In this document: in pieces, positions 3,621 through 23,697 of the stretch | Position numbering within the stretch: position 1 is the first letter of the stretch | How the letters are laid out: each line of letters opens with the position of its first letter | Assembly (NCBI GenBank): GCA_030602615.1 | Contig: JAUVZM010000005.1 | Coordinates: 5,094-69,093 of the forward strand | Direction of reading: 5' to 3' | DNA length: 64,000 nt | Origin: a bacterium | GTDB taxonomy: Bacteria; Armatimonadota; Zipacnadia; Zipacnadales; Zipacnadaceae | Notes under the pieces: generated by a model | The model's input: the letters and a program-made list of their open reading frames with translations, nothing else | What the model was told of the DNA's origin: nothing | Database searches by the model: none | Program-made: the position numbers and the translations under genes

Positions 3621-3623
3621 AAA

Positions 3624-4217: not shown

Positions 4218-4219
4218 CA

Positions 4220-5110
4220 ATGGACAGTTTGCCAGCCGACCAAACCAGGACGTTGCCAAGCCCGCAGGCCGCCGACCAGGCTCCTTCTCCCATCCAGCTA
4301 ATCACAGTAGGTGCAGCGCTGCTGCTGGCCTACGGGCATTATATCCTGTGGATGGTCGAACGGTGGTGGGAAAGCCCCTACTACGGGCACGGCTTTCTGA
4401 TCCCCATTATCAGCGGTTACCTGATCTGGCGGGTGCGCGAGCGGCTGTGGCAGCTACCGCGCGAAGATTTCAATTGGGGAATAGTCATTGTGGCCGGCTC
4501 ACTGGTGGTGCATCTTGCTGCCAGCTTTGCCGACGTCCATTTTCCCTCGGGCTTTGCTCTGGTTGGAACAATCTTTGGGCTAGTGGTATGGCTGGGAGGA
4601 CGGGCATGGGGACAGATGCTGATCTTTCCGGTCGGCTTCCTGGCATTTATGGTGCCCCTGGGTCGAATCCTGGTCGAGCAGGTCGCCGGGCCTCTGCAAC
4701 TACTCTCCGCCCAACTGGGCGGCCAGGCCGTAGCAATGATTGGCGGGATAGTCAATATTGAAGGCACGCTCATCCGCACGCCGATCTACACCTTCGAGGT
4801 AGCCATTCCCTGCAGCGGACTAAAATCAACCATTGCTATGACTGCGCTGGCTGCCCTGTTTGCCTATCTGGTGGTGGCGCCGCGGTGGAAGAAGCTGGTG
4901 TTGTTCGTGTGCGCTTTTCCCGTAGCCTTGCTGGCCAACGCTGCCCGCATCTTCGTCACTGTGATTTTAGGTACAACTGTGGGGCCGGCTGTTGCTGAAG
5001 GCTTTTTTCACAGCGTTTCGGGTATTATTGTTTTTCTATTCGGCCTGACCGGTCTGTTCGTCGTGGGGAGAACCCTGGGATGTCTGCAACTGCGCGAAGA
5101 CATCTGGTAG
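4220..5110 (+). CDS. exosortase family protein (XrtA-like transpeptidase)
   Basis: The N-terminus WWESPYYGHGFLIP matches the exosortase start. The catalytic Cys motif AIPCSGLKS and Arg motif NAARIFVTV are present. There are about 8 transmembrane helices. EpsI overlaps directly downstream. Confidence 0.75.
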   Translation: MDSLPADQTRTLPSPQAADQAPSPIQLITVGAALLLAYGHYILWMVERWWESPYYGHGFLIPIISGYLIWRVRERLWQLPREDFNWGIVIVAGSLVVHLAASFADVHFPSGFALVGTIFGLVVWLGGRAWGQMLIFPVGFLAFMVPLGRILVEQVAGPLQLLSAQLGGQAVAMIGGIVNIEGTLIRTPIYTFEVAIPCSGLKSTIAMTALAALFAYLVVAPRWKKLVLFVCAFPVALLANAARIFVTVILGTTVGPAVAEGFFHSVSGIIVFLFGLTGLFVVGRTLGCLQLREDIW

Positions 5111-5733
5111 CCCTGATCATACTGCTGGCCGCGGCCGCAGCGGTGGAAGCCGTCCGCATCATGAGCAGCGCGCCGCCCGCCTTCGCACCCGATTTTGCCA
5201 CATTGCCGATGAAGATCGGTGACTACCAGGGCCAGAACCGCGAAGTTGACGAGTTTATCCGCAAGTATCTGGGCGCCGAACAGATGCTGGAACGCCTCTA
5301 CACCGGCCCAGACGGTTTGGTGAGCGTGACCCTGATCTACGGGGTGGACTGGCGCGACGTTCACTCGCCGGTAAGCTGCTTTCCTGCCCAGGGCTGGCTG
5401 ATCGTCGCTGACGACCCCATCCAGGTACCAGCCCCCGCCGACTCACCGACCCCGGGTGCCGTCCACGCCCGTCTGCTGCGGGTAGTCAAGAATGACCAGT
5501 ATCGGCTGGCTGCCTTCGCCTTCTGCCATCCCGGCGGTACCACCAGTAACTGGATCTACCAGGGATGGAAGGTACTTACCGGCCCACGCGGAGCCGGCGG
5601 AGTCATCGTCATCCTCGACACCGAACCAACCCCCGGCCTAGAACCTGCCCAGCAGCGCCTCAACCAGTTTCTGGCGGCCGTCTACCCCCACGCTGTCAGC
5701 TTCTGGTATCAGGAGCCACAGATCGGCAGTTGA
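5080..5733 (+). CDS. exosortase-associated EpsI family protein
   Basis: A signal or anchor helix is followed by the EpsI hallmark HSPVSCFPAQGW (H-x-P-x-x-C-[LF]-P-x-x-GW). The gene overlaps the exosortase by 31 nt. Confidence 0.7.
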   Translation: MSATARRHLVALIILLAAAAAVEAVRIMSSAPPAFAPDFATLPMKIGDYQGQNREVDEFIRKYLGAEQMLERLYTGPDGLVSVTLIYGVDWRDVHSPVSCFPAQGWLIVADDPIQVPAPADSPTPGAVHARLLRVVKNDQYRLAAFAFCHPGGTTSNWIYQGWKVLTGPRGAGGVIVILDTEPTPGLEPAQQRLNQFLAAVYPHAVSFWYQEPQIGS

Positions 5734-5742
5734 TCACAGGGC

Positions 5743-7317
5743 TCAGCGACCTGGCCCAAGTACGACGACCCCACTATTGCGGTATACAGGCTGCCAGCCG
5801 TGCGCCGCGGCCAGCTCCAGCAACTGGCGACGGGGCAGTGCGCGGGCCCATTGACCCTGGGGCGAGGTTGTCGGCACGGCCACCGCACCGACGCCATAAT
5901 GCCGCCAGACGCGCTCAAGGGCATCAGCATCATCGAAAGGAATCTGCACCACTGGCCGGTCACTGTAGAAACGTACCAGGTACGGGTAGTGTGCCATGAT
6001 AACGCTAGGGGCGGGCAATTGCTGCTTCGCCCAACCCGCCATTTCGATGTGAGCCTGCCGCGATGAGTTGGCCGACTGCTGGCTCACCCGCCAATAGACG
6101 TATCCGCCTATACCCACACAGGCTACCAGCAGCACGACAGCTAACAGACCCGCCTCAGCATCTCTGCGGATTGCCCAAATCCGTCGGGCTATTGTCATGC
6201 CCCCCGCGGCGGCACTGATTGCCACCACCGGTAGTACCGCCAGCAGATAACGAGGCAGGACGATCCAACTCAGCCCCAGCTCCAATATGAGCAGACCTGC
6301 AAAAACCCACAGATTTCTGACCCGGCGGTGATGACCCACACCCAATATGACAATCACACAGGGAACCACAAAGAACAGGCCAACGCCCCCGAACAGTAGG
6401 GCCAGAGCGCGGCCTAGTTGGCCAATAACCGTCGCAGCAGCCCCTGGCAGGCCTGCTTGACTGAGCCAGCCGCCCAGTGAGGGGAGCGGCTCGCCCCAGT
6501 AAACGTGTAGCAGCCCCTGGCCGGAAGCATCCGTCCTGATGTGCCCCGCGGTATGAATGTTTGTCGAATAGACAGGATTGCCAAAAGTCAGATGATTGCG
6601 TATCAGCATCGGCGAGGCAAACAGCAGGACGATGACAGCGAATCCGATCAAATGCAGAAGACGCCGTCGGGTGCTCAACCCGGCTTGATCCAGCCAGTAG
6701 TAGGCCGCCAGGGGAGCCACCAACAGTAGCCCGGCAGGCTTGATGGTACAGGCCAGACCGACAGCAGCCCCGGCCAGCAGTATTGCCCCCTTGCGCTCAC
6801 CAGCACAGAGGGCTGCTAATAATGCTAGCAGCAACAGGCTCGTGAAGAGGACATCGGCTCCGGCGTCCAGCGACTCTTTGAGCCAGTAAGGCCAGGCAAC
6901 GAACAGAATCCCGGCCGCCAGGCAAACTGCGGAGGGAAGTCTTAACTGCTGAACCAGCAGATACACCAGAACAGGAGCAAGCAACAGACCTAACAGCAGG
7001 TTGGGCAAGGTTGCTGCAAATTCACTTTGTCCAAACACCGCCATACTGCCGGCCAATACCAGTGACCATGCCGAGGGACGGCGGTCCTCGGCATGCTGGA
7101 CCGACTGGTAGCGGCGATAGAAATTGCCCACCACCTCGCTGGTCAGGCCCCGTCCAGCCAGCAGATTGCGGGCTACCTCCACATAATTGGCCGGATCATA
7201 CGCTCCCAGCCGCGGCGCGCGCCAAGCCGTAATGAGCCCCGCTACCAACATCAGCCCACAGACAGCAATGAGGATGTGGAAATGTCGGTTCCCTATTGGG
7301 TTGAGCTTTGCTGACAT
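5743..7317 (-). CDS. GT-C fold membrane glycosyltransferase (family 39-like, PMT_2 superfamily)
   Basis: The N-terminal loop motif AYDPANYVEVARNLLAGRG is ArnT/PMT-like. More than 10 transmembrane helices precede a C-terminal soluble domain. The gene is convergent with the exosortase operon. Confidence 0.6.
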   Translation of the reverse strand: MSAKLNPIGNRHFHILIAVCGLMLVAGLITAWRAPRLGAYDPANYVEVARNLLAGRGLTSEVVGNFYRRYQSVQHAEDRRPSAWSLVLAGSMAVFGQSEFAATLPNLLLGLLLAPVLVYLLVQQLRLPSAVCLAAGILFVAWPYWLKESLDAGADVLFTSLLLLALLAALCAGERKGAILLAGAAVGLACTIKPAGLLLVAPLAAYYWLDQAGLSTRRRLLHLIGFAVIVLLFASPMLIRNHLTFGNPVYSTNIHTAGHIRTDASGQGLLHVYWGEPLPSLGGWLSQAGLPGAAATVIGQLGRALALLFGGVGLFFVVPCVIVILGVGHHRRVRNLWVFAGLLILELGLSWIVLPRYLLAVLPVVAISAAAGGMTIARRIWAIRRDAEAGLLAVVLLVACVGIGGYVYWRVSQQSANSSRQAHIEMAGWAKQQLPAPSVIMAHYPYLVRFYSDRPVVQIPFDDADALERVWRHYGVGAVAVPTTSPQGQWARALPRRQLLELAAAHGWQPVYRNSGVVVLGPGR

Positions 7318-7520
7318 GATAGGCCCCCGGATGGCTACCTACCAACAGGCCCAAACAGAATTCAAGGCAACAGCGGCTGGGACCTTCATATCGGGGCAAC
7401 AGCGGGTCAGGTTAGCGGTTACAGGCCTCGACGAGGCAATGAGCAGACCACTGGCGCTATATGATGATTTTATGAGTTAACAGCATCTGCGCCAAGCAAG
7501 TAGCCGCCCACAGCTTGTGG

Positions 7521-9113
7521 CTATGGTTGGCGCTGCACAAACATCGCTGCCCCCCAGAGAATGACACAGATGAGCAGCAGGGGCAGGTCGCCGATGCGGT
7601 GGTAGATTGACAACCTGCTCAGAGGATAGACTTTGGCAACTGTCAGGCCTTCTTCGCCCGCGGCGACCTCGGCGATGCGCCGCCCATAGGGGTTGATTAT
7701 GGCCGAGGGACCCATAGTGGCGGCCCGCACCACATAGCGACGACTTTCGACGGCGCGTACTGAAGCGATGGCCCCGTGCTGGCGCAATTCCGGGCTGTAA
7801 GCCGCCCACGAGTCACTGGTTATGGCGACCAGAACCTGGGCGCCCTTGCGACACAACTCGCGGTTAGGCCCCGCGAAGATTGCCTCCCAACAGATCAGAG
7901 TGCCCAGCGGAACTTCGTCGTATACCCGGAGCAGATTACGCTTGGCTCCCGGCACGATGTTTTGCGAGCGGATCGGATAGCGGCCAACCAACCGGTTGAG
8001 GGGACCCAGGTTCGGGACGTATTCCCCGAACATGACCAGATCAACCTTGCGATAGATATCGATAAGTTTGCCCTCACCGGAAAAAAGATAGGCAGAATTA
8101 TGCACCTGGCCGCCAGCCGCCTCCAGGGCGCCCACCAGCAGGTGGGCGCCTGTCTCCTTCGCGACCTGCTTGACTTCGTCAAGGTACTCGGGTGATTCGT
8201 TGAGCGCCACCGGCAGGGAAGTCTCGGGCCAGACAATCAGATCAGCCAGTATGCGGTCAGCAGACTTGGACGTCATATTGACGTAGGCCAGTCGGCACCG
8301 CTCGGCATCCTCCTGGGTAGTGGGATGCTGTATCGCCACGTTAGCCTGCATCACAATGGTACTTAGCGGTTTGCCGGCGGCGATTTCTCTGACAGAGGGA
8401 GTGACAAATGATCCGCTTTGAATGACCACCGCCCCGCTCAGGATAACTCCAAACACCAGGGCCAGTCCTATGAACACGGGTTTGGCCATCTGGGGATGAG
8501 CCGACTGTCTGGCCTCAAGCTTTGCCAGATGGGTCTGGACAAATATGGAGGCGATCAGAGCATTGGCAAAGACTATGACCAGCGTGACGGCACCAGAACC
8601 CAGAACGCTGGCAATCTGCAGTAGCAACAGCATCTCGTATTGGCTGTAGGCTATATCGCCAAAGTTGACGGCCAGCGCCCCTATGTGGCTGCGGATATAC
8701 TCGACCAGAACCCAGGCAGCAGCCAGCGCCGCCGCGCGTAGCAGCAGGGACCTCACGGCCCGCAAATAGACTGCCAACCAGCCGAACACTGCAAAGAAGA
8801 ATCCCTGGAAGAGAGCCAGCAGAACCAGGGGCAGAACTCCGTACTGCGAGATATAGTAGAAGAACAGCCCGAAAAAGACCATTCCGTAGATGAGGCCGAC
8901 CACGCCGCCCTGCCAGGGCCTGCGTACCTGGCCCAGAACGTAGAAAAGCGGGATTAAGGCTATCCAGGCCACAGCAGCCATCTCGGCAGGAGGAAAACTG
9001 ACAAATAGCAGAACAGCCGATAGCACAGCGCCCGCTGCCATTACTATCCAGGAAGTTGACGAGGCCGGCCGGGAGTTATTAGACCCAACTGTTACAGATT
9101 GGAATGCAATCAT
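7521..9113 (-). CDS. lnt: apolipoprotein N-acyltransferase
   Basis: An N-terminal polytopic membrane part is followed by a CN-hydrolase domain with the motifs LIVWPETSLP, K and LICWEAIF (Glu-Lys-Cys triad). The length of 530 aa is typical. Confidence 0.8.
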   Translation of the reverse strand: MIAFQSVTVGSNNSRPASSTSWIVMAAGAVLSAVLLFVSFPPAEMAAVAWIALIPLFYVLGQVRRPWQGGVVGLIYGMVFFGLFFYYISQYGVLPLVLLALFQGFFFAVFGWLAVYLRAVRSLLLRAAALAAAWVLVEYIRSHIGALAVNFGDIAYSQYEMLLLLQIASVLGSGAVTLVIVFANALIASIFVQTHLAKLEARQSAHPQMAKPVFIGLALVFGVILSGAVVIQSGSFVTPSVREIAAGKPLSTIVMQANVAIQHPTTQEDAERCRLAYVNMTSKSADRILADLIVWPETSLPVALNESPEYLDEVKQVAKETGAHLLVGALEAAGGQVHNSAYLFSGEGKLIDIYRKVDLVMFGEYVPNLGPLNRLVGRYPIRSQNIVPGAKRNLLRVYDEVPLGTLICWEAIFAGPNRELCRKGAQVLVAITSDSWAAYSPELRQHGAIASVRAVESRRYVVRAATMGPSAIINPYGRRIAEVAAGEEGLTVAKVYPLSRLSIYHRIGDLPLLLICVILWGAAMFVQRQP

Positions 9114-9130
9114 AGCCGCAATAGTTCACC

Positions 9131-9451
9131 TCAGCAAGATGCCGCCGGGGCTGCCGGAGCTACGACTTTTCCTCTTGCCAGCTTCTTCAGGAAACGCTCT
9201 ATGCGAACAAGTGCCTCTTTCAGTTGCTCCAGGCCGGTGGCGTAGGTGCATCGTAAGTAGCCCTGACCACTGGCGCCAAAGGCAGTGCCAGGAACTACTG
9301 CCACCGCCTCTTCAAACAGCAATGCCCTGGCGAACTGTTCGGAGGTCAGGCCGGTATGCTCAACAGAGGGAAACGAGTAGAAAGCACCTTTCGGTTCCCC
9401 ACAGGGCAATCCGAGGCTATCACTGAGCAGTTCACAGCTCGATATAGCCAA
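9131..9451 (-). pseudogene. remnant of a class I aminotransferase (C-terminal ~100 aa only)
   Basis: The sequence KGAFYSFP...LLFEEAVAVVPGTAFG..GYLRCTYATGLEQLKEALVRIERFL is the canonical AspC-type C-terminus. There is no room for the ~300-aa PLP-binding N-terminal part, because secF occupies the upstream DNA in another frame. Confidence 0.5.
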
Positions 9452-9457
9452 ACCAGT

Positions 9458-10597
9458 CTAGAAGCGGCGTCTACTGCTCCTGTCGTGGCGGCGTTTGCGG
9501 CGCTCGCGCCGCTCTTCGCGCTTTTCCTCCTGGGCGTCCTCTTTAGCCTGCTGGATAGCATCTTCGCTGCTTACCTTCTCTGGTTCGCTCTTTTTCTCTG
9601 TGATCTGCTTCGGGCCGCCACCTCCCTCGCTGGCGGTTGCGCCGACGTAGGCGGGTCGCCGGCGGCGCTGCCTGGCAGTGACCTCGTCACGCTCCCACGC
9701 TACCACAATGGGGCTGGCAATGAATATGGAAGAGTATGCGCCGCTGGCAATCCCAACAATCAACGCCAGCGAGAATGCGTGGATGGCCGGCCCACCAAAG
9801 AAGAATAGAGCAATCAGAGCAAACAATGTTGTGACAGTAGTGTTGATCGAACGGGTCATTGTCTGCAGCAGGCTGGTGTTAGCAATCTCGGCAAATAGGC
9901 CGCCCCGATACAGCCGCATATTCTCCCTGATGCGGTCGAAGATCACCACGGAGTCATTTATTGAATAACCAATAATCGTCAGTATCGCCGCCACGAACTC
10001 GCTATTCAACTCAGCACCCAGCAGCGACATCACTCCGACCACTATTAACACGTCGTGGACGATGGCCACAACCCCAGCGACTCCGAAGCGCAGCTCATAG
10101 CGAATGGCAATGTAGATAAGGATCAGAATAGCACCAAGGATCAGCGCTAGCAGTGCGGTGTTGCGCAGCCGCTTGCCTACTATCGGGCCAACCAGATCGC
10201 GGCCCAAAACCTTGGGAGTGCCAGCCCGATCGCCGAAAAGCTCCCGGAGCCCTCCAGCTACTTGCTCAGCCTGCTGGGCAGCGGTATCTTCGTCCTGGGT
10301 GGCAGTGCGGATAAGCAATTCCGTCGTACCGGAGACCTGTATCTGACACTTGCTCAATCCATACTCATCGAGCATAGCCCGAGTTTGGGCAACAACAGTG
10401 GCAGCCGAATGCTGCGAATCCGTCAGCGAACGCTCAAAGCCATAGTTCACCAGTGTGCCCCCGGTGAAGTCTATGCCGTAGTTCATGCCCTTGCCAATCC
10501 AACTGATCAGCCCGGCACCTATCACGACCAGCGAGACAATCAACCACAGCCGGCTGCGGCCGATAATGTCGAAATTACTGCGGCGAAAAAAGTCCAA
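9458..10597 (-). CDS. secF: protein translocase subunit SecF, with a ~75-aa highly charged C-terminal tail
   Basis: Six transmembrane helices carry the SecF motifs GIDFTGG and GYSINDSVVIFDRIRE. A K/E/R-rich tail (EEKREERRERRKRRHDR) follows. The gene is immediately downstream of secD. Confidence 0.85.
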   Translation of the reverse strand: MDFFRRSNFDIIGRSRLWLIVSLVVIGAGLISWIGKGMNYGIDFTGGTLVNYGFERSLTDSQHSAATVVAQTRAMLDEYGLSKCQIQVSGTTELLIRTATQDEDTAAQQAEQVAGGLRELFGDRAGTPKVLGRDLVGPIVGKRLRNTALLALILGAILILIYIAIRYELRFGVAGVVAIVHDVLIVVGVMSLLGAELNSEFVAAILTIIGYSINDSVVIFDRIRENMRLYRGGLFAEIANTSLLQTMTRSINTTVTTLFALIALFFFGGPAIHAFSLALIVGIASGAYSSIFIASPIVVAWERDEVTARQRRRRPAYVGATASEGGGGPKQITEKKSEPEKVSSEDAIQQAKEDAQEEKREERRERRKRRHDRSSRRRF

Positions 10598-10640
10598 GTC
10601 AAGTAAACCTCCTCAGCAAATAGCGGCGAGAATACCAAGC

Positions 10641-12638
10641 CTATTGCTCTGCGCGGGGTTTGACCCCGTAAAGGGACAGATTCTGTCCCAATGAGGTCCG
10701 CCCTACCATCGTGATCATCCAGCGAGTCACCGTCACCGCGGTAAACAGCGACACACAGATTCCCAAAAACAGCACCACCGCGAAACTCTTAATCAGGCTG
10801 GTACCCAAGAAGTACAGCACTGCTGCCACAATGAGCGTAGTCACATTGGCGTCGAGGATGGCCGTCCAGGCGCGGTTGAATCCCGCCTCGACAGCCGAGC
10901 GCATGGTGCGCCCCGACCACAATTCCTCTTTCAGCCGCTCATAGATGATAACATTGGCATCCACGGCAAACCCAATTGACAGGATCAAGCCGGCTACCCC
11001 CGGCAGCGTCATAGTTGCTCCGACGAAGACCAGCACTGCCAGCAGCAAAAGTACGTACAAGATGAGCGCGACCCCCGCTACCATCCCCGGCAGGCGGTAG
11101 AATCCGATCATAAACAGAATCACAAATCCAAAAGCAATACCACCAGCGATTAGGCTACGGTTGATGGTATCCTGGCCCAGCGTGGCGCTGACGGTGCGAT
11201 TCTCGGCGATCTCCAGAGGCACCGGCAGGGCACCAGCATTCAGCAGCAGGGCGATATCGCCGGCCTCCTGCGCGTCGAAACTACCCTCAATCACACCCCG
11301 GCCCCCCGTGATAGGACTGCGAATGACTGGAGCCATCTGGCACTCCTCATCCAGCACGATGGCCATTATCCTGCCCACGTTGCGACGGGTGAAGTCGCCG
11401 AAAGCGGTTGATTTCTCAGCCCTCAGCTCAAAGGCAACCACAAAGTCCATGGCCTGGCCGGGCTGAGGCCGGGCATTGCTCTTCAGATCAGCGCCGGTGA
11501 AGGCCTGCTCGGAGCTGTGATAGACCTGCTGCCAGGGTACCACGTCATTGCTGGCCTCGTCTATCCACTGGCTGTAGTCACCAGCTTCCGCCGCCCCCCC
11601 AGCGAGGGTGTAGCGCGCAGGAATGAGTCGAAATTCAAGCTGAGCTGTGCTCTGAAGAATACCCAGTACGCGCTGGGGATCCTTGACGCCAGGTAGCTCG
11701 ACGATAATCTGGTCGTCGCCCTGCTGCTGAATGACCGGCTCGCGGATATCGCTCATCGCGTACAGACGCCGGCTTACAATATTCTTGACCTTGTCGGCGG
11801 TATTCTTCCCGATAAAGACAGTCTCTGGGTCCTTCTTTTTAATCTCCACCCCCGGATAGTTGCTCTGCAGGAATTGGTAAACTATCTCCTGATGCTTCTC
11901 GACAGTACTTTTGTCATTTGCTCGCGTCCTTACTACCAGTAGACCGGGTGTCGGCACCTCCACAGTGATCTCATCGGCGGGCACCCCCTTACGCACCAGC
12001 ACGGCCTTGACTTTTTCCCGCAGGCTGGCCCGCGTTTCCCCGGGCTGATAGCCCTGGAGCTGGTTTGACTCGTCCTCCGTGGCGGCCTCCTGGTCAAGCC
12101 TCACCAGCGGCTTGTCCTCAGGTGAAGTAAAATGCATGGTAGCCTGGGACAGACAGCGCAGCACTACGTGAGCTCCCCCCTGCAGATCCAGTCCCAGCTT
12201 AATCTGGGGGCTTGGCGGATAAATAGCCAGATTGTCAAACGGCTGCCACAGGGGTTGCTGGCCCGCTTGTGAGGGTGGTGTTTGCGGCTGGCCAACTCCC
12301 TCAAAGTTCTCCTGCAGAATCTGGGTGACTGCTTGTTTGTCTTTCTGTGCCTCTTCATCGGTAACCGCCGCAGTCTCGACTTCCAGCGTGGAGTTATCAA
12401 GCAGAGTCACCGACATAGTGACCACACCGGCCTCTTCCAGCAGCTTCTGAATCTGCTCGGACTTGGCAAAGCGCTGGGCTGCATCAGAAACCAGCGGCTC
12501 AGCAAACGGGTAGCGGAAGGTGCTCTGTACGGTAAAGCCACCTCCCTCCGGAGATTGGATTGGGGCAAACCCCATCAGGAAACTAACAGCAAACAGAAGA
12601 ATGATTGTTGCAATCCAATATTTGTGCCGAGCTGGCAT
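10641..12638 (-). CDS. secD: protein translocase subunit SecD
   Basis: An N-terminal transmembrane helix and a large periplasmic P1 domain are followed by the C-terminal 5-transmembrane bundle with SecD/SecF family motifs. The gene is upstream of secF. Confidence 0.85.
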   Translation of the reverse strand: MPARHKYWIATIILLFAVSFLMGFAPIQSPEGGGFTVQSTFRYPFAEPLVSDAAQRFAKSEQIQKLLEEAGVVTMSVTLLDNSTLEVETAAVTDEEAQKDKQAVTQILQENFEGVGQPQTPPSQAGQQPLWQPFDNLAIYPPSPQIKLGLDLQGGAHVVLRCLSQATMHFTSPEDKPLVRLDQEAATEDESNQLQGYQPGETRASLREKVKAVLVRKGVPADEITVEVPTPGLLVVRTRANDKSTVEKHQEIVYQFLQSNYPGVEIKKKDPETVFIGKNTADKVKNIVSRRLYAMSDIREPVIQQQGDDQIIVELPGVKDPQRVLGILQSTAQLEFRLIPARYTLAGGAAEAGDYSQWIDEASNDVVPWQQVYHSSEQAFTGADLKSNARPQPGQAMDFVVAFELRAEKSTAFGDFTRRNVGRIMAIVLDEECQMAPVIRSPITGGRGVIEGSFDAQEAGDIALLLNAGALPVPLEIAENRTVSATLGQDTINRSLIAGGIAFGFVILFMIGFYRLPGMVAGVALILYVLLLLAVLVFVGATMTLPGVAGLILSIGFAVDANVIIYERLKEELWSGRTMRSAVEAGFNRAWTAILDANVTTLIVAAVLYFLGTSLIKSFAVVLFLGICVSLFTAVTVTRWMITMVGRTSLGQNLSLYGVKPRAEQ

Positions 12639-14538: not shown

Positions 14539-14761
14539 ATGTGCCTGATAGCAGTTGTAGTGACGCTCCTGGTTAGTGCTGTCGTTGTTTCGGCGGGAAC
14601 CGTCAATGATGGGCTACAGCGGATTGCTGATGGTTCCGACCACTGACACCCTGAGCGACGGGGGCTACAATGTCGCGATAAGTAGCAGTGAATTGAGCGA
14701 CTGGGATGACCGCGCTTACATTGCCAACTTCGGCCTGCAGTGGCAGATGATCTTCGAGTAG
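14539..14761 (+). pseudogene. frameshifted remnant of an SLH-porin paralog (signal peptide plus terminal beta-barrel strands)
   Basis: Frame 1 encodes a signal peptide MCLIAVVVTLLVSAVVVSAG that stops at 14649. The +1 frame continues to ...DWDDRAYIANFGLQWQMIFE, which mirrors the C-terminus of the 15222 porin (...DLIGLQWQMMFD). Confidence 0.35.
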
Positions 14762-14904
14762 CTGGCCATTGCTGTTGCCTGCTACCTCCTAACGGAGGAT
14801 AGCAGCACCTTAGTTGGCCAAGAGCAACTAAGCACAACGGGGACTCGGGCAACCGAGTTCCCGTTGTTCATTTACGAGTCCTGTCCAGTGCTACACCACA
14901 AGGT

Positions 14905-14933
14905 TGACAGAAAGGGGAAACTATGATATAGTG
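14905..14933 (+). promoter_or_regulatory. sigma-70-type promoter (TTGACA-17-TATAGT) upstream of the SLH porin
   Basis: TTGACA at 14905-14910 is followed by a 17-nt spacer and TATAGT. It lies about 290 nt upstream of the porin ATG, implying a long 5' leader. Confidence 0.4.
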
Positions 14934-15221
14934 TTTAGTGTTCGTCGTGACATGATGCATTGCGCGGCGATCCTCTGAGCACTCAATCGCACTGCCTGTC
15001 CAAACTGGCCAGGAAGGGAGGGTACCTCAAGGCCTGACCGGTAGTTGGTCAGCGGTTGAGAAGCCAAGCGAGTTGTACGCCGACAAGGGGCAATAGTGCG
15101 AGGAAACATAGGACACTCACCGGATCGTCCCAGTCGGACTGTGGGCTTGCTTGGATGAAGTGAAGACGTGTTGTCATCACTTCCTTGGAGTCTTCATAAT
15201 ATGAAAGAGAGGATAAGATAA

Positions 15222-16610
15222 ATGACCAAGCACAGAGTACTGTTGTGTTTAGTTGTTGTAGTGCTCGCAGCCCCAGCTTATGCTGGAGGTGACCCCGTTG
15301 GAACGGTCCCCCCTGATCACTGGGCCTACGACGCTGTCAAGGAGCTGGTGGACGCGGGAATACTGATCGGTTATCCCGACGGGGCCATTCGTGGCAATCA
15401 GCCCATGACTCGGTACGAGTTCGCGATGGCCATCAGCCGCCTGATGGCTGCCCTCGAAATGACGGGTGTCGCTGGTCCCCAGGGCCCCGCCGGCCGGCAC
15501 GGTGCCACTGGCCCAGCAGGTCCGGCTGGTGCCCATGGCCCGGCATCGGCAGCGCCACCTGCTACAGTGGTAGCAGCCGCGCCCGCAGGTGCCACCGCGG
15601 CAGCTCCTGCCGCCAGCGATAAGTGGTACGACCGGATGTCGGTTGACGGGTACTTGCAAACGCGCTATGAGGACCGGGATATGGGTTCTTCTTCTGGCCC
15701 CAGCGCTGCGAACATGGGCAGCGATGGTGAGCATGACGGGTTTTACCTGCCGCGTTTGCATGTCAGCCTGCGGGCCGATGTCAACGAGCGAACCAAGGCC
15801 GTAGTGACCTGGTCACGTCTGGGCAGTACGAGCTCGCGGCCGCAGTGGACCACTGACTGGACGGACATCTACCTGGACTACGCTTATAGCGACAAGTGGA
15901 CAGTCCGCCTCGGCCAGGCGCCCAACTGGTTTGGGCTGGAGGGCGCGCAAGACTCTTCGGACCGCATGTCCCTGGAGCGAGCTGCCTTCCTGACTCGTAT
16001 CCCCGAAACTGGCGGGCCGGGCTGGAAGGACGGAGTGTACCACGCAGGTCGGTGGGACCGCGGCGTGTGGTTCGTCCGCCATCGCAAGAGCACCGGCGGG
16101 CCTCAGATCATACTGGGCCTAACTAACGGTAGCTTCCGGGATGTGGAGGGCAATAGCAACAAGACCCTATCGGCAGATCTGAAGTGGAAGCGGCCCTGGG
16201 GGCAGTACGGGGTTAGTTGGCTGGATGGCAAGACCAGTTATTCTCCGGACAGGGACCGCAACGCGCTGCTGGGGTATGTGCGCTGGGCGCGACCTGACCA
16301 GCGTTGGGCGGCACAGGCCGAGTATATGGACGGCAAGCTGCACGGCGACAACGTCGACGGCTGGTATGGCCAGTTCGAGTATCGGTTGACGAAGAATCCG
16401 ACGTGGGCCTTCGTCAAGTTGGAGGAGTTTAACCCCACGGACGATGCCAAGTACGATGCTGTGCACCTCGGTCTGACCAAGCAGCTAGACGCGAACAACG
16501 AACTCACCCTGCAGTGGACCGATGCCGATTGCGATTACAGGCGTAGAGGCAGTGATAGGACCCGCAAGAAGGACCTAATCGGCCTGCAGTGGCAGATGAT
16601 GTTCGACTAG
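15222..16610 (+). CDS. SLH-domain outer-membrane porin (OmpM/Slp-like) with a collagen-like linker
   Basis: A signal peptide is followed by the SLH motif PPDHWAYDAVKELVDAGILIGYPDGAIRGNQPMTRYEFA. Eight consecutive Gly-X-Y triplets follow (GPQGPAGRHGATGPAGPAGAHGPA). The C-terminal region is rich in alternating aromatics and ends with an F-terminal beta-barrel signature. Confidence 0.75.
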   Translation: MTKHRVLLCLVVVVLAAPAYAGGDPVGTVPPDHWAYDAVKELVDAGILIGYPDGAIRGNQPMTRYEFAMAISRLMAALEMTGVAGPQGPAGRHGATGPAGPAGAHGPASAAPPATVVAAAPAGATAAAPAASDKWYDRMSVDGYLQTRYEDRDMGSSSGPSAANMGSDGEHDGFYLPRLHVSLRADVNERTKAVVTWSRLGSTSSRPQWTTDWTDIYLDYAYSDKWTVRLGQAPNWFGLEGAQDSSDRMSLERAAFLTRIPETGGPGWKDGVYHAGRWDRGVWFVRHRKSTGGPQIILGLTNGSFRDVEGNSNKTLSADLKWKRPWGQYGVSWLDGKTSYSPDRDRNALLGYVRWARPDQRWAAQAEYMDGKLHGDNVDGWYGQFEYRLTKNPTWAFVKLEEFNPTDDAKYDAVHLGLTKQLDANNELTLQWTDADCDYRRRGSDRTRKKDLIGLQWQMMFD

Positions 16611-16667
16611 CCGAGAGACGGACGCTTGGGTTGATTCAATCAGCACAAGCAATAGACACCTACCGGG

Positions 16668-16693
16668 CCGGTGGCCCTCCACAGGGCCACCGG
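16668..16693 (+). terminator. terminator-like hairpin after the SLH porin (11-bp GC stem, 4-nt loop, weak U tract)
   Basis: The hairpin ccggtggccct-ccac-agggccaccgg lies 58 nt after the stop codon. Confidence 0.35.
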
Positions 16694-16930
16694 CTCGTTG
16701 GTGCAAGCCATGAGACTCCCGCAGTCAGCACTACAGTGACCTACGACGGCCAGACCGCGGAGCTATCTTCGGTACCGTACCTGCTGGCTGGGGGAACTGC
16801 GATGATGCGGTGGGACGCATCTCTTTCGGGAAGTAGGCGATTACTTCAGTAGTTGCGCACCAAGCACAAACTATCCATGCTCCAGCGCACGCTGGAGCAT
16901 GGGTTTCTCCAGGACCCTGGCAGCTACTGC

Positions 16931-18248: not shown

Positions 18249-18842
18249 ATGGCAATGGATCTCGTCTTTGCTAATCGGCTACTGGCCAGCTTCACTGACC
18301 AGGCGATCACCATCAGTGAAACGGCGCTGGTGGCACTCGCCCGGCAGGGCGACCATCACGCCTTCGAAGTCCTGGTGCGGCAGTACAGGAACCGTGTGTT
18401 GAACGTGGTCTGGCGCATCGTCTCCGATGCCGACGGCGCCCAGGACGTGGCGCAGGAGACATTCATCAAGGCGTACCAGCAACTCCCTCGCTTCCGGGGG
18501 AAGTCCACGTTCGGCACGTGGCTGTACCGCATAGCGGTCAACGAGGCACGCGGGCACCTCCGCGCACGGCGCCGACGGCAGGCCCGCTGGGAAAAGCAAG
18601 GAATGCTGGAAGCAGTTCAGCCGGTGTCTCCCGAGGTTGGCGAACAGGCTGGGCCAATCGTGGGTCTACTGCAGGAACTGCCGGAAAAGCAGCGCATCGC
18701 GCTGGCCCTGTTCTATCTGCAGGAACTGTCCGTGGCCGAGATTGCCCGGGCAGTGCGCGCGCCGACCGGGACGGTTAAGGCGTGGCTGTCTCGCGGTCGG
18801 CAGCGACTGCGAGAACTCGCCCAGGAAAGAGGGCTTCTGTGA
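18249..18842 (+). CDS. ECF-family RNA polymerase sigma factor
   Basis: Region 2 (FEVLVRQY...AQDVAQETFIKAY) and region 4 (LSVAEIARAVRAPTGTVKAWLSRGRQRL) are both present. Confidence 0.8.
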   Translation: MAMDLVFANRLLASFTDQAITISETALVALARQGDHHAFEVLVRQYRNRVLNVVWRIVSDADGAQDVAQETFIKAYQQLPRFRGKSTFGTWLYRIAVNEARGHLRARRRRQARWEKQGMLEAVQPVSPEVGEQAGPIVGLLQELPEKQRIALALFYLQELSVAEIARAVRAPTGTVKAWLSRGRQRLRELAQERGLL

Positions 18843-19312
18843 ACTGCCGGCAGGCGCACGCACAACTGGCTGGCTACAGTGCAGGCTTCACCCGGGGCGA
18901 GCGCCGCACGCGCTTGCAGGCACATCTGGCCGTCTGTCAGCCGTGCCGGGAGCACCTGGCGCAACTGCGCGCGCTGGATCAGCTCCTGGCTGGTGAATCG
19001 CTGAGTGCGGACGAAGCGCTGGTGCACAGAATTATGGCACAGGTGCAGGAGGCCGAGATTCTCTGCAAGTGGCGGCGGCGATGGCTGCTGGACAGCCTGG
19101 GGCCAATAGCGGCGGCGGTCAGCCTGGGGGCAGCCACGATACTGATTATCCAGCCGTACGCTGCCGAGTGGACCGCAGCACTGAGCACGTGGCAACTGGA
19201 CTGGGAGCTGCTGGCGCAGCCGCAGTGGGCGCTGGGAGCAGTCGTGGGATTGCCTTTGGTAGCGGGGACAGTGGCCTGGCTGACTAATTGGCTCGCCGAA
19301 GCGTTGACCTGA
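18839..19312 (+). CDS. anti-sigma factor (zinc-finger type) with a C-terminal transmembrane helix
   Basis: A GTG start overlaps the sigma-factor stop (GTGA). The H..C..C motif (HLAVCQPCREH) is typical of ZAS/RsrA-like anti-sigma domains. A transmembrane helix is present (LLDSLGPIAAAVSLGAATILII). Confidence 0.6.
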   Translation: MNCRQAHAQLAGYSAGFTRGERRTRLQAHLAVCQPCREHLAQLRALDQLLAGESLSADEALVHRIMAQVQEAEILCKWRRRWLLDSLGPIAAAVSLGAATILIIQPYAAEWTAALSTWQLDWELLAQPQWALGAVVGLPLVAGTVAWLTNWLAEALT

Positions 19313-19349
19313 CCCAGAACATTCGTGAGTCGCGACAGGAATGTCGCTC

Positions 19350-19715
19350 CTACGGTATGGTGAGCGCCTCGGCGGCGGCCTCCACATTCTCCAGAATCGG
19401 CACCATCGCGGCTACACCTGTCGTCAGAGTAGAAGCGGCCACCGAACCAGTGGCGCCAGCGATGGCCATATCGCCGCCCCGGCTGCGCAGGCGTACGGCA
19501 GTAGTCAGAAGCTGGCCCAGAGCCCGAGATATCAGGAATTCTGCGCCGGAAAGATCCACCACTAGGTAGCGGACGTCCTCGTCTATCAAGCTATCCAGCA
19601 GACGACTCAGCCGCTCCAGGCCCTCAGCGCCAGCGTCCACCTCTCCGCGAATAGCAAGCACTGTCACCGGCGGCTCGCGGTCTATCTCAGTCACTGCTGT
19701 TTCCATCTGCCTCAC
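19350..19715 (-). CDS. STAS-domain anti-sigma factor antagonist (SpoIIAA-like)
   Basis: The length of 121 aa and the pattern VTVLAIRGEVDAGAEGL...LVVDLSGAEFLISRALGQLL match a STAS domain. Confidence 0.7.
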   Translation of the reverse strand: MRQMETAVTEIDREPPVTVLAIRGEVDAGAEGLERLSRLLDSLIDEDVRYLVVDLSGAEFLISRALGQLLTTAVRLRSRGGDMAIAGATGSVAASTLTTGVAAMVPILENVEAAAEALTIP

Positions 19716-20556
19716 CTACTTTTGCCTTGGCGATCTGATGCTGACTTGCCCAGTCCAACAGATGCTCGGCGCACTCGTCAGGCACCTCAACCGCACCGAT
19801 CTCCACTGGTATCGGCCCCTCTGGCCCATGCGAGTCGCTGCCTCCGGTGATCAGCAGATCATTCTCCTGGGCCATCACGATATAACGACGGGTCTGCGCC
19901 GGGCTGTGAATAATATGATACGCCTCTATGCCCTGCAAGCCGCAGTCTATCAAGCTGTCAACATGTTGCTCAGCGCCATCCAGTACCGGGTGGGCCAGCA
20001 CGGGTATCCCGCCAGCGCTAATTACCAACTCTACAGCCTCGCCGGGAGCAAGCTGGTAGCGCTCCACGTAAGCTGAGCCGCCCCGGCGCAGATACCGAGC
20101 AAAGGCCTGCCGGGAATCAGCCACGTGGCCCTCTCTGGCTAATCGCCGGGCGATATGGGGCCGGCCAATGCTGTCAGGGCCAGCCTCTTCCAGCAGCTTT
20201 TCAAAGTCAATGACAATCCCCAGCTTCTCCAGCTCATCAGCAATCTGGCGTGCCCGCTGGTGGCGGGCGTCGCGAATCGCCTGCAACTTCTCCCGCAATC
20301 CGACGTGCTGTAGGTCAATGAAGTAGCCCAGGATATGTACGTCCCGGCTGTCTACCGTGGTACTTATCTCAACGGCGGGCAATACCTGCAATTCAGTGTC
20401 AGCAGCCGCCTGCTGCGCGGGCACAACCCCTGATATGCTATCATGGTCACTAATGGCAATCGCTGTCAGTTGCTTATCCAGGGCCACTTGCACTATCTGC
20501 TGCGGCGTCAGCGTGCCATCGGAAAAAGTTGAATGAATGTGTAAGTCAATTGCCAT
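19687..20556 (-). CDS. PHP-domain phosphoesterase (TrpH/YciV-like)
   Basis: MAIDLHIHSTFSDG...AISDHD...HP are PHP metal-binding motifs. The chosen start is ATG at 20556, and the ORF-track N-terminal extension is judged unlikely. It overlaps the helicase stop by 11 nt. Confidence 0.75.
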   Translation of the reverse strand: MAIDLHIHSTFSDGTLTPQQIVQVALDKQLTAIAISDHDSISGVVPAQQAAADTELQVLPAVEISTTVDSRDVHILGYFIDLQHVGLREKLQAIRDARHQRARQIADELEKLGIVIDFEKLLEEAGPDSIGRPHIARRLAREGHVADSRQAFARYLRRGGSAYVERYQLAPGEAVELVISAGGIPVLAHPVLDGAEQHVDSLIDCGLQGIEAYHIIHSPAQTRRYIVMAQENDLLITGGSDSHGPEGPIPVEIGAVEVPDECAEHLLDWASQHQIAKAKVGEADGNSSD

Positions 20557-22876
20557 TCTGCGGTTTATTTCCCGAAGTGGCCGGCTCAGTCCTTCCTGTT
20601 GCCCACAACTGAGCCAGCAGTGCTGCGCCCGTCTTGTCCAACGGTTGATTGTCATCGCCGCAACTGGGCGACTGCACGCAGCCCGGACAGCCGGCTTCAC
20701 ACGAGCAGTTTGTTATCCGTTCATAGACCGCACCCAACACTTCCTCGGCCCGGTAGTAGGCCTCCTCGCAGATACCCACCCCCCCCGGATATCCGTCATA
20801 GATGAAAACTCCCCCGCCGTCCAGTGCTTTGTGATAAAAATACGAAACCCCCCCAATATCGTGGGCCTCACACAGCGCAAACAAGGGTAGCAGCGCCACG
20901 AGCGCGTGCTCCAGAGCGTGCAGGCTACCCATGGGGTGGCACTTGTGCGCGGCCAGCATCTGCGCCGCCGCCTCGCTGAGGGTCAGCCATACTCCTACTG
21001 TCTCGTAGTCCTGCGCCGGTAAATTCAGCTTTTCGCTTCCACATTGCTGGCCGCTTTCCCGGTTGAACTTGCGATACCCCACGACCTGGTTGTGGACATT
21101 GACCTCGCCGAGGCCTATCTGGCCGCAGCCAGCCAGCTCTCGCCTGTCATAAGCCTCAATGACATCCACGTCCGACATCTCCAGAGTCTGAGTGTAATAT
21201 TCAACATCAGTCGGCTCCACGGTGATGCGGTACTCTTCTATATCCAGGTCAGTAACCAGGTAGTCCTCTCCCTGGTGCAGGTAGACCGCGCCGGGATAGG
21301 TTATCCAGTAGACCGAATGTTCGTCAATCGTGCCCAGCAGCTCATCACAACTGGCATCAATAATCTCAAACTCGCCACCGGCACTGCTGCGGATATTGAC
21401 CTCGGCCGGTGGATAGATATCTACATCGCCGGACCAGTGCCAGCGGCGGCGCTTGCGCAGATAGTTGTGCTTCTCCAATGTCTGCAGAATTGCAGGCATC
21501 TGAGGGCCGAAGAAATCCTCGTCATCTTCAGCCAGCGACAACTCGTAAGCTGCGCACAGCAGATGCTGTCCCAGAATGAAGCGGTTATCGGGATTGATCA
21601 ACACTCGCTCCTGAGCAGCGTCCAGCAGATACTCGGGATGCTCAATGACATACTGGTCAATACCGCCGGGCAGCGCCACCAGCACGGCAAGCGAATCATG
21701 CTGCCCCCGGCCAGCCCGCCCGACCTGTTGCCAGGCCGAGGAGATACTGCCCGGATAACCGGTCATCACCACCGCGTCCAAGCCACCGATGTCCACGCCT
21801 AGCTCCAGGGCACTGGTAGCCGCCACCGCCAGCAAGTCACCGGAAAAGAGTTGCTGCTCGATCTGGCGCCGCTGCTCAGGTAAGTACCCTCCCCGATAAG
21901 CCATCAGGCGCTCGCTGAGCCTCTCATCGCCAGCCAGCTCGCGCATGTACTGGAGAATAAGCTCGGCATGCTGGCGGGCCTGGGTGAAGGTGAGCGTGCG
22001 AATGCCGCGGCCGGCCAGCGCCACGGTTAGCTTAGCAGCCTCCACACTGCCGCTGCGCCGCCGACCTGAGTCAGGTTCGAGCAGCGGCGGATTCCAGAAG
22101 ACGAAAAAACGCCGTCCCCGCGCCGAGGTGTCTTCGCTGATCACCTCAAAATCTGCCCCCACCAGCCGTCGGCAGTGCTCGCCGGGATTGCCCACAGTCG
22201 CCGACGAGCAGATGAACTGCGGCTCTGCACCGTGGTATTGGGCAATCCGCCGCAGTCGGCGCAGCACATTGGCCGTGTGCGAGCCGAACACGCCCCGGTA
22301 GGTATGCACCTCATCGAGCACGACATACTTAAGGTGCTCAAAGAAGTCGGCCCACGACTGATGATACGGGCAGACGGCCATATGCAGCATATCGGGGTTG
22401 GTGAGAATGACTTGCGAATACTGGCGGATGCGCCGGCGCTGGCTCTGGGGGGTGTCGCCGTCGTAGGTGTTAGCGGTAAACACCTCCCCGGCGCCAAAAT
22501 CGCTCAGCTTGCCCAGTTGATCCTGCGCCAGCGCCTTGGTCGGATAGACCAGGATTGCTCGAGTGGTTGGGTCTTCGTATATTGCCTGGGCCAGTGGCAC
22601 TGTGTAACACAGTGTCTTTCCGCTGGCCGTACCCGCGGCAATGACCACATTTTTGCCGGCAAATACCTGCTCGATGGCCCGGACCTGGTGACGATAGAGC
22701 CTATCCAGGCCCAGATTATCCAGAATAGTCTCCACCTGCGGGCTTAGTTGTACATCCAGTTCATCGTAACGCGCCGGCTGCGGGGGAATCACCTGAAGAT
22801 GCTGGATCTGGTCCTGGTAATCTGCACCTGTGGTCAGCTCATCCAGGAATGCCTCGATGGGAGACTGCTCGCTCAC
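20546..22876 (-). CDS. DEAH-box helicase with a C-terminal DUF1998 zinc-finger domain (MrfA/YprA-like)
   Basis: Walker A (AAGTASGKT), DEVH box (VVLDEVHTY) and helicase C motifs are present. The C-terminal CSCEAGCPGCVQSPSCG four-Cys motif is the DUF1998 hallmark. Confidence 0.75.
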   Translation of the reverse strand: MSEQSPIEAFLDELTTGADYQDQIQHLQVIPPQPARYDELDVQLSPQVETILDNLGLDRLYRHQVRAIEQVFAGKNVVIAAGTASGKTLCYTVPLAQAIYEDPTTRAILVYPTKALAQDQLGKLSDFGAGEVFTANTYDGDTPQSQRRRIRQYSQVILTNPDMLHMAVCPYHQSWADFFEHLKYVVLDEVHTYRGVFGSHTANVLRRLRRIAQYHGAEPQFICSSATVGNPGEHCRRLVGADFEVISEDTSARGRRFFVFWNPPLLEPDSGRRRSGSVEAAKLTVALAGRGIRTLTFTQARQHAELILQYMRELAGDERLSERLMAYRGGYLPEQRRQIEQQLFSGDLLAVAATSALELGVDIGGLDAVVMTGYPGSISSAWQQVGRAGRGQHDSLAVLVALPGGIDQYVIEHPEYLLDAAQERVLINPDNRFILGQHLLCAAYELSLAEDDEDFFGPQMPAILQTLEKHNYLRKRRRWHWSGDVDIYPPAEVNIRSSAGGEFEIIDASCDELLGTIDEHSVYWITYPGAVYLHQGEDYLVTDLDIEEYRITVEPTDVEYYTQTLEMSDVDVIEAYDRRELAGCGQIGLGEVNVHNQVVGYRKFNRESGQQCGSEKLNLPAQDYETVGVWLTLSEAAAQMLAAHKCHPMGSLHALEHALVALLPLFALCEAHDIGGVSYFYHKALDGGGVFIYDGYPGGVGICEEAYYRAEEVLGAVYERITNCSCEAGCPGCVQSPSCGDDNQPLDKTGAALLAQLWATGRTEPATSGNKPQNGN

Positions 22877-23697
22877 TGCTCCTCACCTTCGGGGTCATCG
22901 ATCAGCTCATCATAGGGCGGGGGGAGCAGCTCATCTTCGCCGTCGGAGAGGTGAGGGCGCTTTTCGACCAGACGCACCAGACCAATGCTGAGCACATACA
23001 GCAACACCAGGGGCCCGGCCATAAACAGCATTGTCACCGGGTCGGTGGTGGGTGTAGCCACGGCCGCAACGATGAATATAGCAACCAGGGCATAGCGCCA
23101 CCATGTGAGCAGGCCGGTTGCTCGCACGATGCCAACCACACCCAGAAACATCAGCACCAGCGGCAGCTCAAAAGCCAGCCCGAAGACCAGCAGCAGTCGC
23201 AGCAGGAAATACAGATAGGGCTGGAGGGTCAGCTCCACCTCCACGCCCATGCTCTGATTGATGTGGAAGAAGAACGCGAAGGCGCGCGGCGAGATAAGAT
23301 AGCAGAACACAACTCCCCCGCCAAAAAGAATGGTTGCCGCTGGCAGCAGCCAGAAGACATAACGCTTCTCGTGGGGCTCGAGGGCCGGCTTGATGAATAG
23401 CCACATCTCCATAAAGATCAGCGGCGCGGCGAGGATGAGGCCAGCCACCAGCGCGATCTGCATCATCAGTATGAACCCGGCGGCCGGCTCGAAGATGCGG
23501 AAGGGCAGCTCCTCAATACCCGCCTGCTGCGCGCCGATCTCCGCCGGCAGCCGCAGGACTTCAAGCAGCGGACTGCGGATGGTCCAAGCCAACGCGGTGC
23601 CAACCGCCACATAGATAAGCATCCGCAGGATGCGCATACGCAGCTCATCCAGATGCTCAAAGAACGAGGCCTCTTTTCGGTAGCTCTGGGCAGTCAC
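22873..23697 (-). CDS. tatC: twin-arginine translocase subunit TatC
   Basis: Six transmembrane helices and the TatC N-terminal motif FFEHLDELRMRIL are present, with a short acidic C-terminal tail. Confidence 0.85.
   Translation of the reverse strand: MTAQSYRKEASFFEHLDELRMRILRMLIYVAVGTALAWTIRSPLLEVLRLPAEIGAQQAGIEELPFRIFEPAAGFILMMQIALVAGLILAAPLIFMEMWLFIKPALEPHEKRYVFWLLPAATILFGGGVVFCYLISPRAFAFFFHINQSMGVEVELTLQPYLYFLLRLLLVFGLAFELPLVLMFLGVVGIVRATGLLTWWRYALVAIFIVAAVATPTTDPVTMLFMAGPLVLLYVLSIGLVRLVEKRPHLSDGEDELLPPPYDELIDDPEGEEQ

Follow-up and report, generated by a model that had tools for sequence, protein, structure and literature searches.

A Gly-X-Y segment in the stalk of SLH porins of Armatimonadota, and a chimeric OmpM-type protein that carries it

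Introduction

Can a collagen-like rod serve as part of the tether between the bacterial outer membrane and the cell wall? The question is raised by one gene in a 64,000-nucleotide stretch of contig JAUVZM010000005.1 (assembly GCA_030602615.1, positions 5,094 to 69,093 of the forward strand; Armatimonadota, Zipacnadaceae). This whole stretch is called the window here, and positions are counted from its first letter. The product of the gene, called the window protein, has 462 residues in which a single S-layer homology (SLH) domain, an uninterrupted run of Gly-X-Y triplets, an Ala/Pro-rich linker and a predicted porin barrel follow one another. In Terrabacteria, connectors of the OmpM/SlpA type are regarded as the ancestral means of attaching the outer membrane to the wall. 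Descriptions of their stalk to date know only a coiled coil, and the length of this coil sets the width of the periplasm (PMC9388160, PMC10628300); Armatimonadota are already listed as a phylum with OmpM-type tethering (bioRxiv 10.1101/2021.05.31.446380; PMC9388160).

The reading that we prefer, and consider rather probable, is that the window protein is a chimeric OmpM-type protein of graft origin that would act as both tether and pore, with a collagen-type stalk within a trimer.

The window protein

The gene and the parts of its product are the following.

15222-16610, + strand: coding sequence of the 462-residue SLH, Gly-X-Y, linker and porin protein, stop codon included
15222-15284, + strand: Sec-type signal peptide MTKHRVLLCLVVVVLAAPAYA, residues 1-21, with an A-x-A site, read from the sequence and not by a predictor
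15288-15458, + strand: single SLH domain, residues ~23-79, with W, G-I/V-x-x-G and TRYE motifs, from Pfam and from OmpM1/SlpA matches
15465-15545, + strand: collagen-like segment of nine uninterrupted Gly-X-Y triplets, residues 82-108, by direct reading, with a sub-threshold Pfam Collagen match
15546-15623, + strand: Ala/Pro-rich linker SAAPPATVVAAAPAGATAAAPAASDK, residues 109-134, conserved in orthologues and without secondary structure in the AlphaFold2 model
15624-16607, + strand: predicted 16-strand porin beta-barrel, Porin_O_P-like, residues 135-462, from AlphaFold2, Foldseek against the PDB, Pfam and the barrel family

The h-region and AYA motif of the signal peptide align with the signal peptides of relatives. 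The SLH domain is found by Pfam at residues 30-68 (E 3e-9) and matches the solved SLH domains of Veillonella parvula OmpM1 (8bz2, 8bys) and Deinococcus radiodurans SlpA (7zgx) with E of about 6e-12; among solved structures, sequence relatives were found for the SLH part only. The segments HWAYDAV, GILIGYPDG and TRYEFA align with those of the OmpM1 and SlpA domains, and all the ligand-binding motifs (W, G-[IV]-x-x-G and TRYE; PMC9388160) are retained. The NCBIfam model por_somb (SomB, NF033921) matched the SLH part only (residues 29-72), at 40.5 bits against a cut-off of 100.

An AlphaFold2 model built from a 26-sequence alignment gives a 16-strand barrel for residues 135-462, with predicted local distance difference test (pLDDT) values mostly of 75-93. 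When this barrel was compared with the PDB by Foldseek, the top match was OmpM1 (8bys_B, E 1e-11), followed by MOMP (18 strands), OmpU and OprO/OprP. These closest folds are porins of 16-18 strands, which we take to be mostly 16-stranded and trimeric. Pfam Porin_O_P matches residues 169-256 (E 9e-9; 35.5 bits against a cut-off of 20.9), covering only profile positions 22-111 of 370. There is no coiled coil in the protein: AlphaFold2 places no helix in the Pro/Gly-rich segment of residues 81-134.

The preliminary description of this DNA had proposed an SLH-anchored outer-membrane porin with a C-terminal beta-barrel ending in an aromatic residue. The anchored porin is borne out by the Pfam SLH match, the OmpM1/SlpA matches, the predicted barrel and the Armatimonadota relatives described below, and the barrel itself by the 16 modelled strands. 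An Ala/Pro-rich linker was likewise correctly placed after the Gly-X-Y segment, at residues 109-134. The terminus was misread: the protein ends ...LQWQMMFD, with the aromatic next to last.

The run itself reads GVA GPQ GPA GRH GAT GPA GPA GAH GPA. It had been given as eight uninterrupted triplets; the run is real, and those eight are the last of nine. Pro occupies X in five of the nine triplets and Y in none. Scanning of the window in all six frames yielded no other run of at least five Gly-X-Y triplets, and the DNA encoding this one is not a tandem repeat. Weak matches of the window protein, all below threshold, were seen to Lcl, SclB and SclA, and also to BclA and collagen chains.

Orthologues

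Three orthologues were found, at locus L002 (90% identity), as protein P0002 (86%) and at locus L003 (77%, cut by a contig end). Every Gly of the run is kept in the window protein and all three, while X and Y vary, so the preliminary concern that the run might be absent from orthologues falls away. In L002 the run is short of exactly two triplets and stays in register. Change is faster at X and Y than in the remainder of the protein, with 8 non-synonymous codon differences in 27 codons against L003. Codon differences in the SLH domain are 6 synonymous and 2 non-synonymous against L002, and 10 and 14 against the more distant L003; those in the linker are 4-5 synonymous against 2 non-synonymous among orthologues (5 and 2 for L002, 4 and 2 for L003). 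At the protein level X and Y of the run are less well conserved than the linker SAAPPATVVAAAPAGATAAAPAASDK. The linker may, to judge from these counts, be more than a passive tether.

The run was also found in an independent Logan assembly (L001), in two GTDB metagenome-assembled genomes (MAGs) and in one further protein cluster. These occurrences bear on the idea that the Gly-X-Y segment arose as an artefact of assembly or is a low-complexity insertion peculiar to one lineage, for which its short length speaks and nothing else. Against it stand these separate sources, the lack of a tandem repeat in the DNA, and the presence of the module in more than 100 distinct relatives; the idea is scarcely credible and we count it as already refuted. 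On the sequence evidence, the run is selected and not a product of chance.

The Armatimonadota OmpM-like family

GTDB species genomes were scanned with the two most conserved SLH peptides, yielding 551 confirmed relatives, the best 80 of which were examined. Nearly all of these 80 are from Armatimonadota MAGs (Armatimonadia, Candidatus Zipacnadia and Chthonomonadales), and they include the cultured species Chthonomonas calidirosea (L059), with 10 Gly-X-Y triplets. The SLH and Gly-X-Y module also heads a large Armatimonadota family of ~550-700 residues, to which the 5' leader RNA, signal peptide, SLH domain and Gly-X-Y segment of the window gene are homologous at 60-67% identity.

For an unbiased search, a profile was made from the coiled coil and barrel only of six proteins of this family, so that the query contained no Gly-X-Y. 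The SLH end is intact in 97 of its 120 best matches. Each of these 97 carries Gly-X-Y without interruption, for 6-48 triplets (median 14; 12-15 in 66 of the 97). The preliminary description had suggested that related genomes be searched for such porins, and here they are general. In 87 of 100 relatives there is a single unbroken Gly-X-Y run. The run starts 12-18 residues past TRYEFA, and 53-55 residues separate its end from the first barrel strand. A coiled coil of ~45-50 residues follows it in the ~600-residue relatives; the AlphaFold2 model of one of them, P0017, has SLH helices, a Gly-X-Y segment without secondary structure, one 45-residue helix and a barrel of ~18 strands. Gly-X-Y length and coiled-coil length do not compensate for each other among the relatives (Spearman -0.07).

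Going by these sequences, the usual Armatimonadota stalk is SLH domain, then Gly-X-Y, then coiled coil, the collagen-like part adding to the coiled coil. By textbook rises per residue such a stalk would measure ~19 nm. The collagen-like rod is a regular, length-constrained spacer of the tether in Armatimonadota. The earlier proposal that a collagen-like stalk takes the place of the coiled coil therefore holds for the window protein and fails for the ~600-residue relatives; the coiled coil is missing from the window protein because that protein is chimeric and has another barrel.

Many Armatimonadota loci have two ompM-like genes in tandem (L029, L039, L042, L069), and two SLH open reading frames are present in each of L006, L018, L055, L063 and L065.

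A triple helix or a flexible spacer

Positional statistics were taken over 1606 triplets across the family, with a similar outcome in a set of 962 triplets. Pro is found at 50% of X positions and 17% of Y positions, acidic residues at 15.6% of X and 3.5% of Y, and basic residues at 3% of X and 14.3% of Y; Gln is favoured at Y along with the basic residues, and aromatic residues are nearly absent. Pairs of K/R at Y with D/E at the X of the next triplet number 152, against 47.5 +/- 5.3 in shuffles that keep composition (none of 1000 shuffles as high), a threefold excess of K/R-G-D/E. Such X and Y preferences match those of genuine triple helices as known from host-guest work on collagen peptides.

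The main alternative is that the Gly-X-Y segment is a flexible, extended Gly/Pro spacer that sets reach together with the linker, with trimerisation left to the SLH domains and barrels only. The shortness of the run and its place under the Pfam threshold fit this, as does low AlphaFold2 confidence in the Gly-X-Y segments of both the window protein and P0017; a plainly non-helical Ala/Pro linker comes next in the window protein, and some lineages are without the run. A disordered spacer, however, demands neither the X/Y preferences nor a strict period-3 Gly, which favours a collagen helix. The runs are uninterrupted in all 97 intact relatives and mostly single and unbroken, the orthologue indel is in register, and the X/Y asymmetry and the charged-pair excess are as packing between chains would select, following the host-guest work just mentioned. 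The flexible spacer is accordingly a real but lesser possibility.

Several observations weigh against a helix. In the window protein pLDDT is below 50 for residues 45-131 of the AlphaFold2 monomer, and its run has no K/R-G-D/E pair. The shortness of the run keeps the Pfam Collagen (PF01391) match, at residues 82-107, to 17.9 bits where the cut-off is 27.2; scores of longer relatives are 24.7-28.0 bits, P0026 alone passing the cut-off. Nine triplets without hydroxyproline are few: free peptides of this kind, and longer bacterial collagens, melt at or below ~40 C, the non-hydroxylated bacterial collagens near 35-40 C. With such low intrinsic melting, stability of the helix would depend on the clamp provided by the SLH trimer, and the window protein is without the downstream coiled-coil clamp of its relatives. 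Chthonomonas calidirosea is a thermophile, and its carriage of Gly-X-Y strains the stability argument. Finally, in another barrel family, P0031, which is 78% identical to P0029 (metagenomic, ~640 residues), has a segment of similar length that is not Gly-X-Y in its place, and half the members of a second barrel cluster have no Gly-X-Y, so the element is replaceable.

The pair P0029 and P0031 also illustrates turnover of the spacer module between close relatives.

Weighing these points, we infer from the sequence statistics that the Gly-X-Y segment probably forms a triple helix. For the phylum as a whole the proposal would be that Armatimonadota tethers contain a true periplasmic collagen triple helix, a rigid ruler of ~12 nm between the SLH trimer and the coiled coil; in the window protein this design would be reduced to its minimum, the rod alone serving as trimeric stalk, and the genes would stand under an uncatalogued leader RNA. 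We regard the chances of this wider proposal as evenly balanced. If it is true, this would be the first collagen helix with a structural role inside the envelope, in the periplasm.

Chimeric origin

The evidence that the window gene joins parts of two porin types comes from protein searches and from the DNA on both sides of it, where two further features are relevant.

14730-14872, + strand: relic of a barrel-only porin gene of P0003 type, consisting of its last ~33 coding nucleotides (...GLQWQMIFE-stop) and its terminator flank, by blastn
16611-16706, + strand: conserved 3' flank (L002, L083) that closes the shared block on the right and includes a GC-rich hairpin, GCCGGTGGCCC...GGGCCACCGGC, by blastn

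In an exhaustive HMMER pass over 1.84 billion (1.84e9) cluster representatives, full-length matches occurred in one 50%-identity cluster only, that of the window protein itself. Some 24 barrel relatives at E<1e-30 match only residues ~115-461, none of them with an SLH domain, and the N-terminal matches in the same pass are all in the 550-700-residue family. The barrel family of the window protein is thus small, its other members being barrel-only or having a short coiled coil, without SLH.

Two barrel-only relatives, P0003 and P0004, adjoin a divergent DUF72 gene, as does the orthologue L002, and locus L082 and the window have downstream genes in common; this synteny speaks for an origin of the chimera in place. 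The gene of 356 residues that follows P0003 in L082 proved not to be a porin paralogue. The 5' untranslated region of the window gene has no homology to those of P0003 and P0004 and is homologous to those of ompM-like genes. The block common to the window and L002 runs from the -35 box (14903), a left edge with which a three-way alignment agrees, to 96 nucleotides beyond the stop. The relic lies just upstream of the promoter of the chimeric gene; by blastn it is 76% identical over 143 nucleotides to L082 3024-3164, and 97-100% identical over 33-35 nucleotides to porin-gene 3' ends in L002 and L083.

A small open reading frame at 14576-14761 (+) ends in FGLQWQMIFE, and an out-of-frame start resembling a signal peptide lies at 14540. 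The content of region 14540-14872 suggests a former tandem or rearranged porin gene.

These sequences are most simply read as a replacement: the 5' end of a resident gene of the Porin_O_P type gave way to an ompM-type cassette made up of promoter, leader, signal peptide, SLH domain and Gly-X-Y, and the Ala/Pro-rich linker connects the two parts. The ~550-700-residue OmpM-like genes are the apparent donors of the cassette, the coiled coil of the donor apparently being left behind. The window protein would thereby document the movement of a tether module, together with its promoter and leader RNA, onto another porin.

We also considered whether the linker is the former signal peptide of a barrel-only porin. 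This was rejected: in six local alignments, 416-931 of 1000 shuffles did equally well or better.

A further alternative is that the chimera is an evolutionary accident, mainly a diffusion porin, in which SLH and Gly-X-Y ride along as a decaying passenger. The fusion is limited to one narrow lineage, the coiled coil is missing, and the locus is rearranged, with the relic upstream and flanks that differ between the window and L002; these are consistent with accident. Decay is hard to reconcile with an N-terminal module intact in four sequences at 77-90% identity, with all the SLH ligand-binding motifs kept, or with the excess of synonymous over non-synonymous differences against L002 in SLH (6/2) and linker (5/2), an excess that against L003 is seen in the linker only (4/2). 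Moreover, the L002 MAG has one canonical ompM-like copy that is cut short, so the chimera may bear real tethering load there. We consider the accident quite improbable.

That copy (L015 2962-4814, MAG CSMAG_2722) is a canonical ompM-like gene with 5 Gly-X-Y triplets and a coiled coil. It is truncated at about residue 347-360 of ~600, with a DUF772 transposase open reading frame directly after; to all appearance the copy is disrupted in this chimera-bearing genome. Among the barrel relatives, P0015, P0016 and P0038-P0044 (~400 residues) lack SLH but have, besides the signal peptide, a Pro-rich linker and a short coiled coil that contains Cys (PEEIRAKCAEIDAKCA...). In them the barrel family bears another kind of periplasmic extension.

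Promoter and leader RNA

The 5' part of the shared block has three features of its own.

14904-14932, + strand: near-consensus sigma70-type promoter, TTGACA, 17-nucleotide spacer, TG and TATAGT (scan, 11/12, extended -10)
14973-15146, + strand: structured RNA motif in the 5' untranslated region, 172 nucleotides and 5 helices (covariance model R1, 145 bits)
15207-15213, + strand: Shine-Dalgarno-like GAGAGGA, 8 nucleotides before the ATG, by direct reading

The promoter is the left edge of the block common to orthologous loci. Covariance model R1 finds 41 copies of the leader motif at E<1e-6, of which virtually all precede SLH-porin genes at a short distance, and in L002-L052 the motif lies ~70-130 nucleotides upstream of them (for example L017 2757-2931 and L009 2757-2929). 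In the tandem pairs L029, L039, L042 and L069 both genes are preceded by a copy of their own; the motif is not upstream of P0003 or P0004. Its conserved GGA-rich loops are AGGAAGGGAGG and GAGGAAACAUAGGACACUC. At the proposed helices 94-95% of cells are paired, against 33-48% in slid controls, and compensatory changes occur in 19 of 26 pairs. No match to the motif was found in Rfam 15.

From this pattern the leader motif is likely a new cis-regulatory RNA. We speculate that it controls translation, perhaps by binding a CsrA-like protein. In an RNAalifold model of three close orthologues, GAGAGGA pairs with an upstream AUCCUCU (columns 37-43/276-282), a pairing that has no covariation support. 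A near-consensus promoter and a long structured leader fit an abundant envelope protein.

Two approaches to the leader were discarded. That it is far more conserved than the coding sequence does not hold, the identities to L002 being 93.5% and 92.5%; the leader is significant because of its distant copies and their covariation. A metagenome scan for GGAGG-N65-95-GGAAACANNGGACAC was too loose, with 1 of 80 stored loci giving a weak covariance-model match.

Proposed assembly and significance

After Sec export, three chains would assemble. The three C-terminal 16-strand barrels would form an outer-membrane porin trimer, as expected from their fold class, and the three single SLH domains would form one wall-binding unit, as in the homologous OmpM1 and SlpA. 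Connectors of this type are homotrimers whose wall ligand is pyruvylated SCWP or polyaminated peptidoglycan. The nine Gly-X-Y triplets would wind into a collagen-type triple helix of ~8 nm, nucleated by the SLH trimer, and the 26-residue Ala/Pro linker would let the three chains diverge to their barrels. The trimer, wall binding and pore function of the window protein are thus predictions from fold and homology.

A length-constrained Gly-X-Y segment across the phylum would add a second building block to the stalk, one that per residue gives about twice the length of a coiled coil and is mechanically different. Collagen-like sequences of bacteria would move from surface adhesins and spore coats to core envelope architecture. 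The window protein offers a natural experiment, a stalk without a coiled coil on a different barrel, and the module is open to study in cultured species such as C. calidirosea.

Comparison with known systems

The window protein shares with OmpM1 of V. parvula (8bys, 8bym, 8bz2; PMC10628300) a signal peptide, a single SLH domain, a periplasmic stalk and a 16-strand barrel, and the dual role of tether and pore as a working model. The stalk of OmpM1 is a triple coiled coil, whereas that of the window protein is nine Gly-X-Y triplets and an Ala/Pro linker, and the two barrels have only ~12-14% sequence identity; the ligand of OmpM1 is polyaminated peptidoglycan (PMC10628300). SlpA of D. radiodurans and Slp of Thermus (7zgx; PMC9388160) resemble the window protein in the N-terminal SLH domain with W, GxxxG and TRYE and in being tripartite connectors of membrane and wall. 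Unlike the window protein, SlpA has a coiled coil of ~28 nm, a 30-strand barrel and no collagen-like sequence (PMC9388160).

In the ~550-700-residue Armatimonadota proteins the Gly-X-Y runs are longer than in the window protein (median 14 triplets), a coiled coil of ~48 residues is present, and the barrel, with ~18 strands, is unrelated to that of the window protein. The cyanobacterial SLH porins (Som/Slr1841 type) have an OprB-type barrel, different from that of the window protein, and no Gly-X-Y has been reported in them. A transfer of SLH to another porin has been proposed in Cyanobacteria (Witwinowski et al.) and would be the same kind of event as that proposed here. OprP/OprO (PF07396; 2o4v, 4rjw), porins made selective for phosphate by an arginine ladder and a lysine cluster, share with the window protein an above-threshold Pfam match and the 16-strand fold (TM-score ~0.5); OprP is unlike it in having no SLH stalk and only ~14% identity.

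Uninterrupted (Gly-X-Y)n beside a trimerising module is found, as in the window protein, in Scl1/Scl2, BclA, Lcl, the animal collectins and scavenger receptor A (collagen with a coiled-coil neck). Pro favours X and charged pairs occur in the Scl, BclA, Lcl and collectin group, as in the Armatimonadota family. The members of that group are surface or extracellular adhesin, exosporium and immune proteins with ~30-80+ triplets, while the window protein would have a short, putatively periplasmic rod.

No description of a collagen-like sequence in SLH/OmpM/SlpA tethers was found in the open-access papers searched, though one may exist elsewhere, and the word 'collagen' is absent from the key OmpM/SlpA papers, including PMC9388160. 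Automatic annotation already pairs the domains, one JGI name being 'Collagen triple helix repeat/S-layer homology domain'.

Other features of the window

Many envelope and export genes are present at 1932-12638 and 18249-23697, among them two PMT_2 (ArnT-like) glycosyltransferases, apolipoprotein N-acyltransferase Lnt, SecF, SecD and TatC; no direct link between these neighbours and the porin gene was established. The same regions hold an extracytoplasmic function (ECF) sigma factor, followed by an overlapping open reading frame (18782-19312, no Pfam match) in the usual anti-sigma position. The sole Rfam family reaching its gathering score in the window is the thiamine pyrophosphate (TPP) riboswitch (RF00059, 68.6 bits), at 31826-31928 (-). 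At 43949-50215 (+) is an open reading frame of 2088 residues with two sets of UvrA interaction and DNA-binding domains and ABC ATPase modules, which appears to be a tandem-duplicated or fused UvrA.

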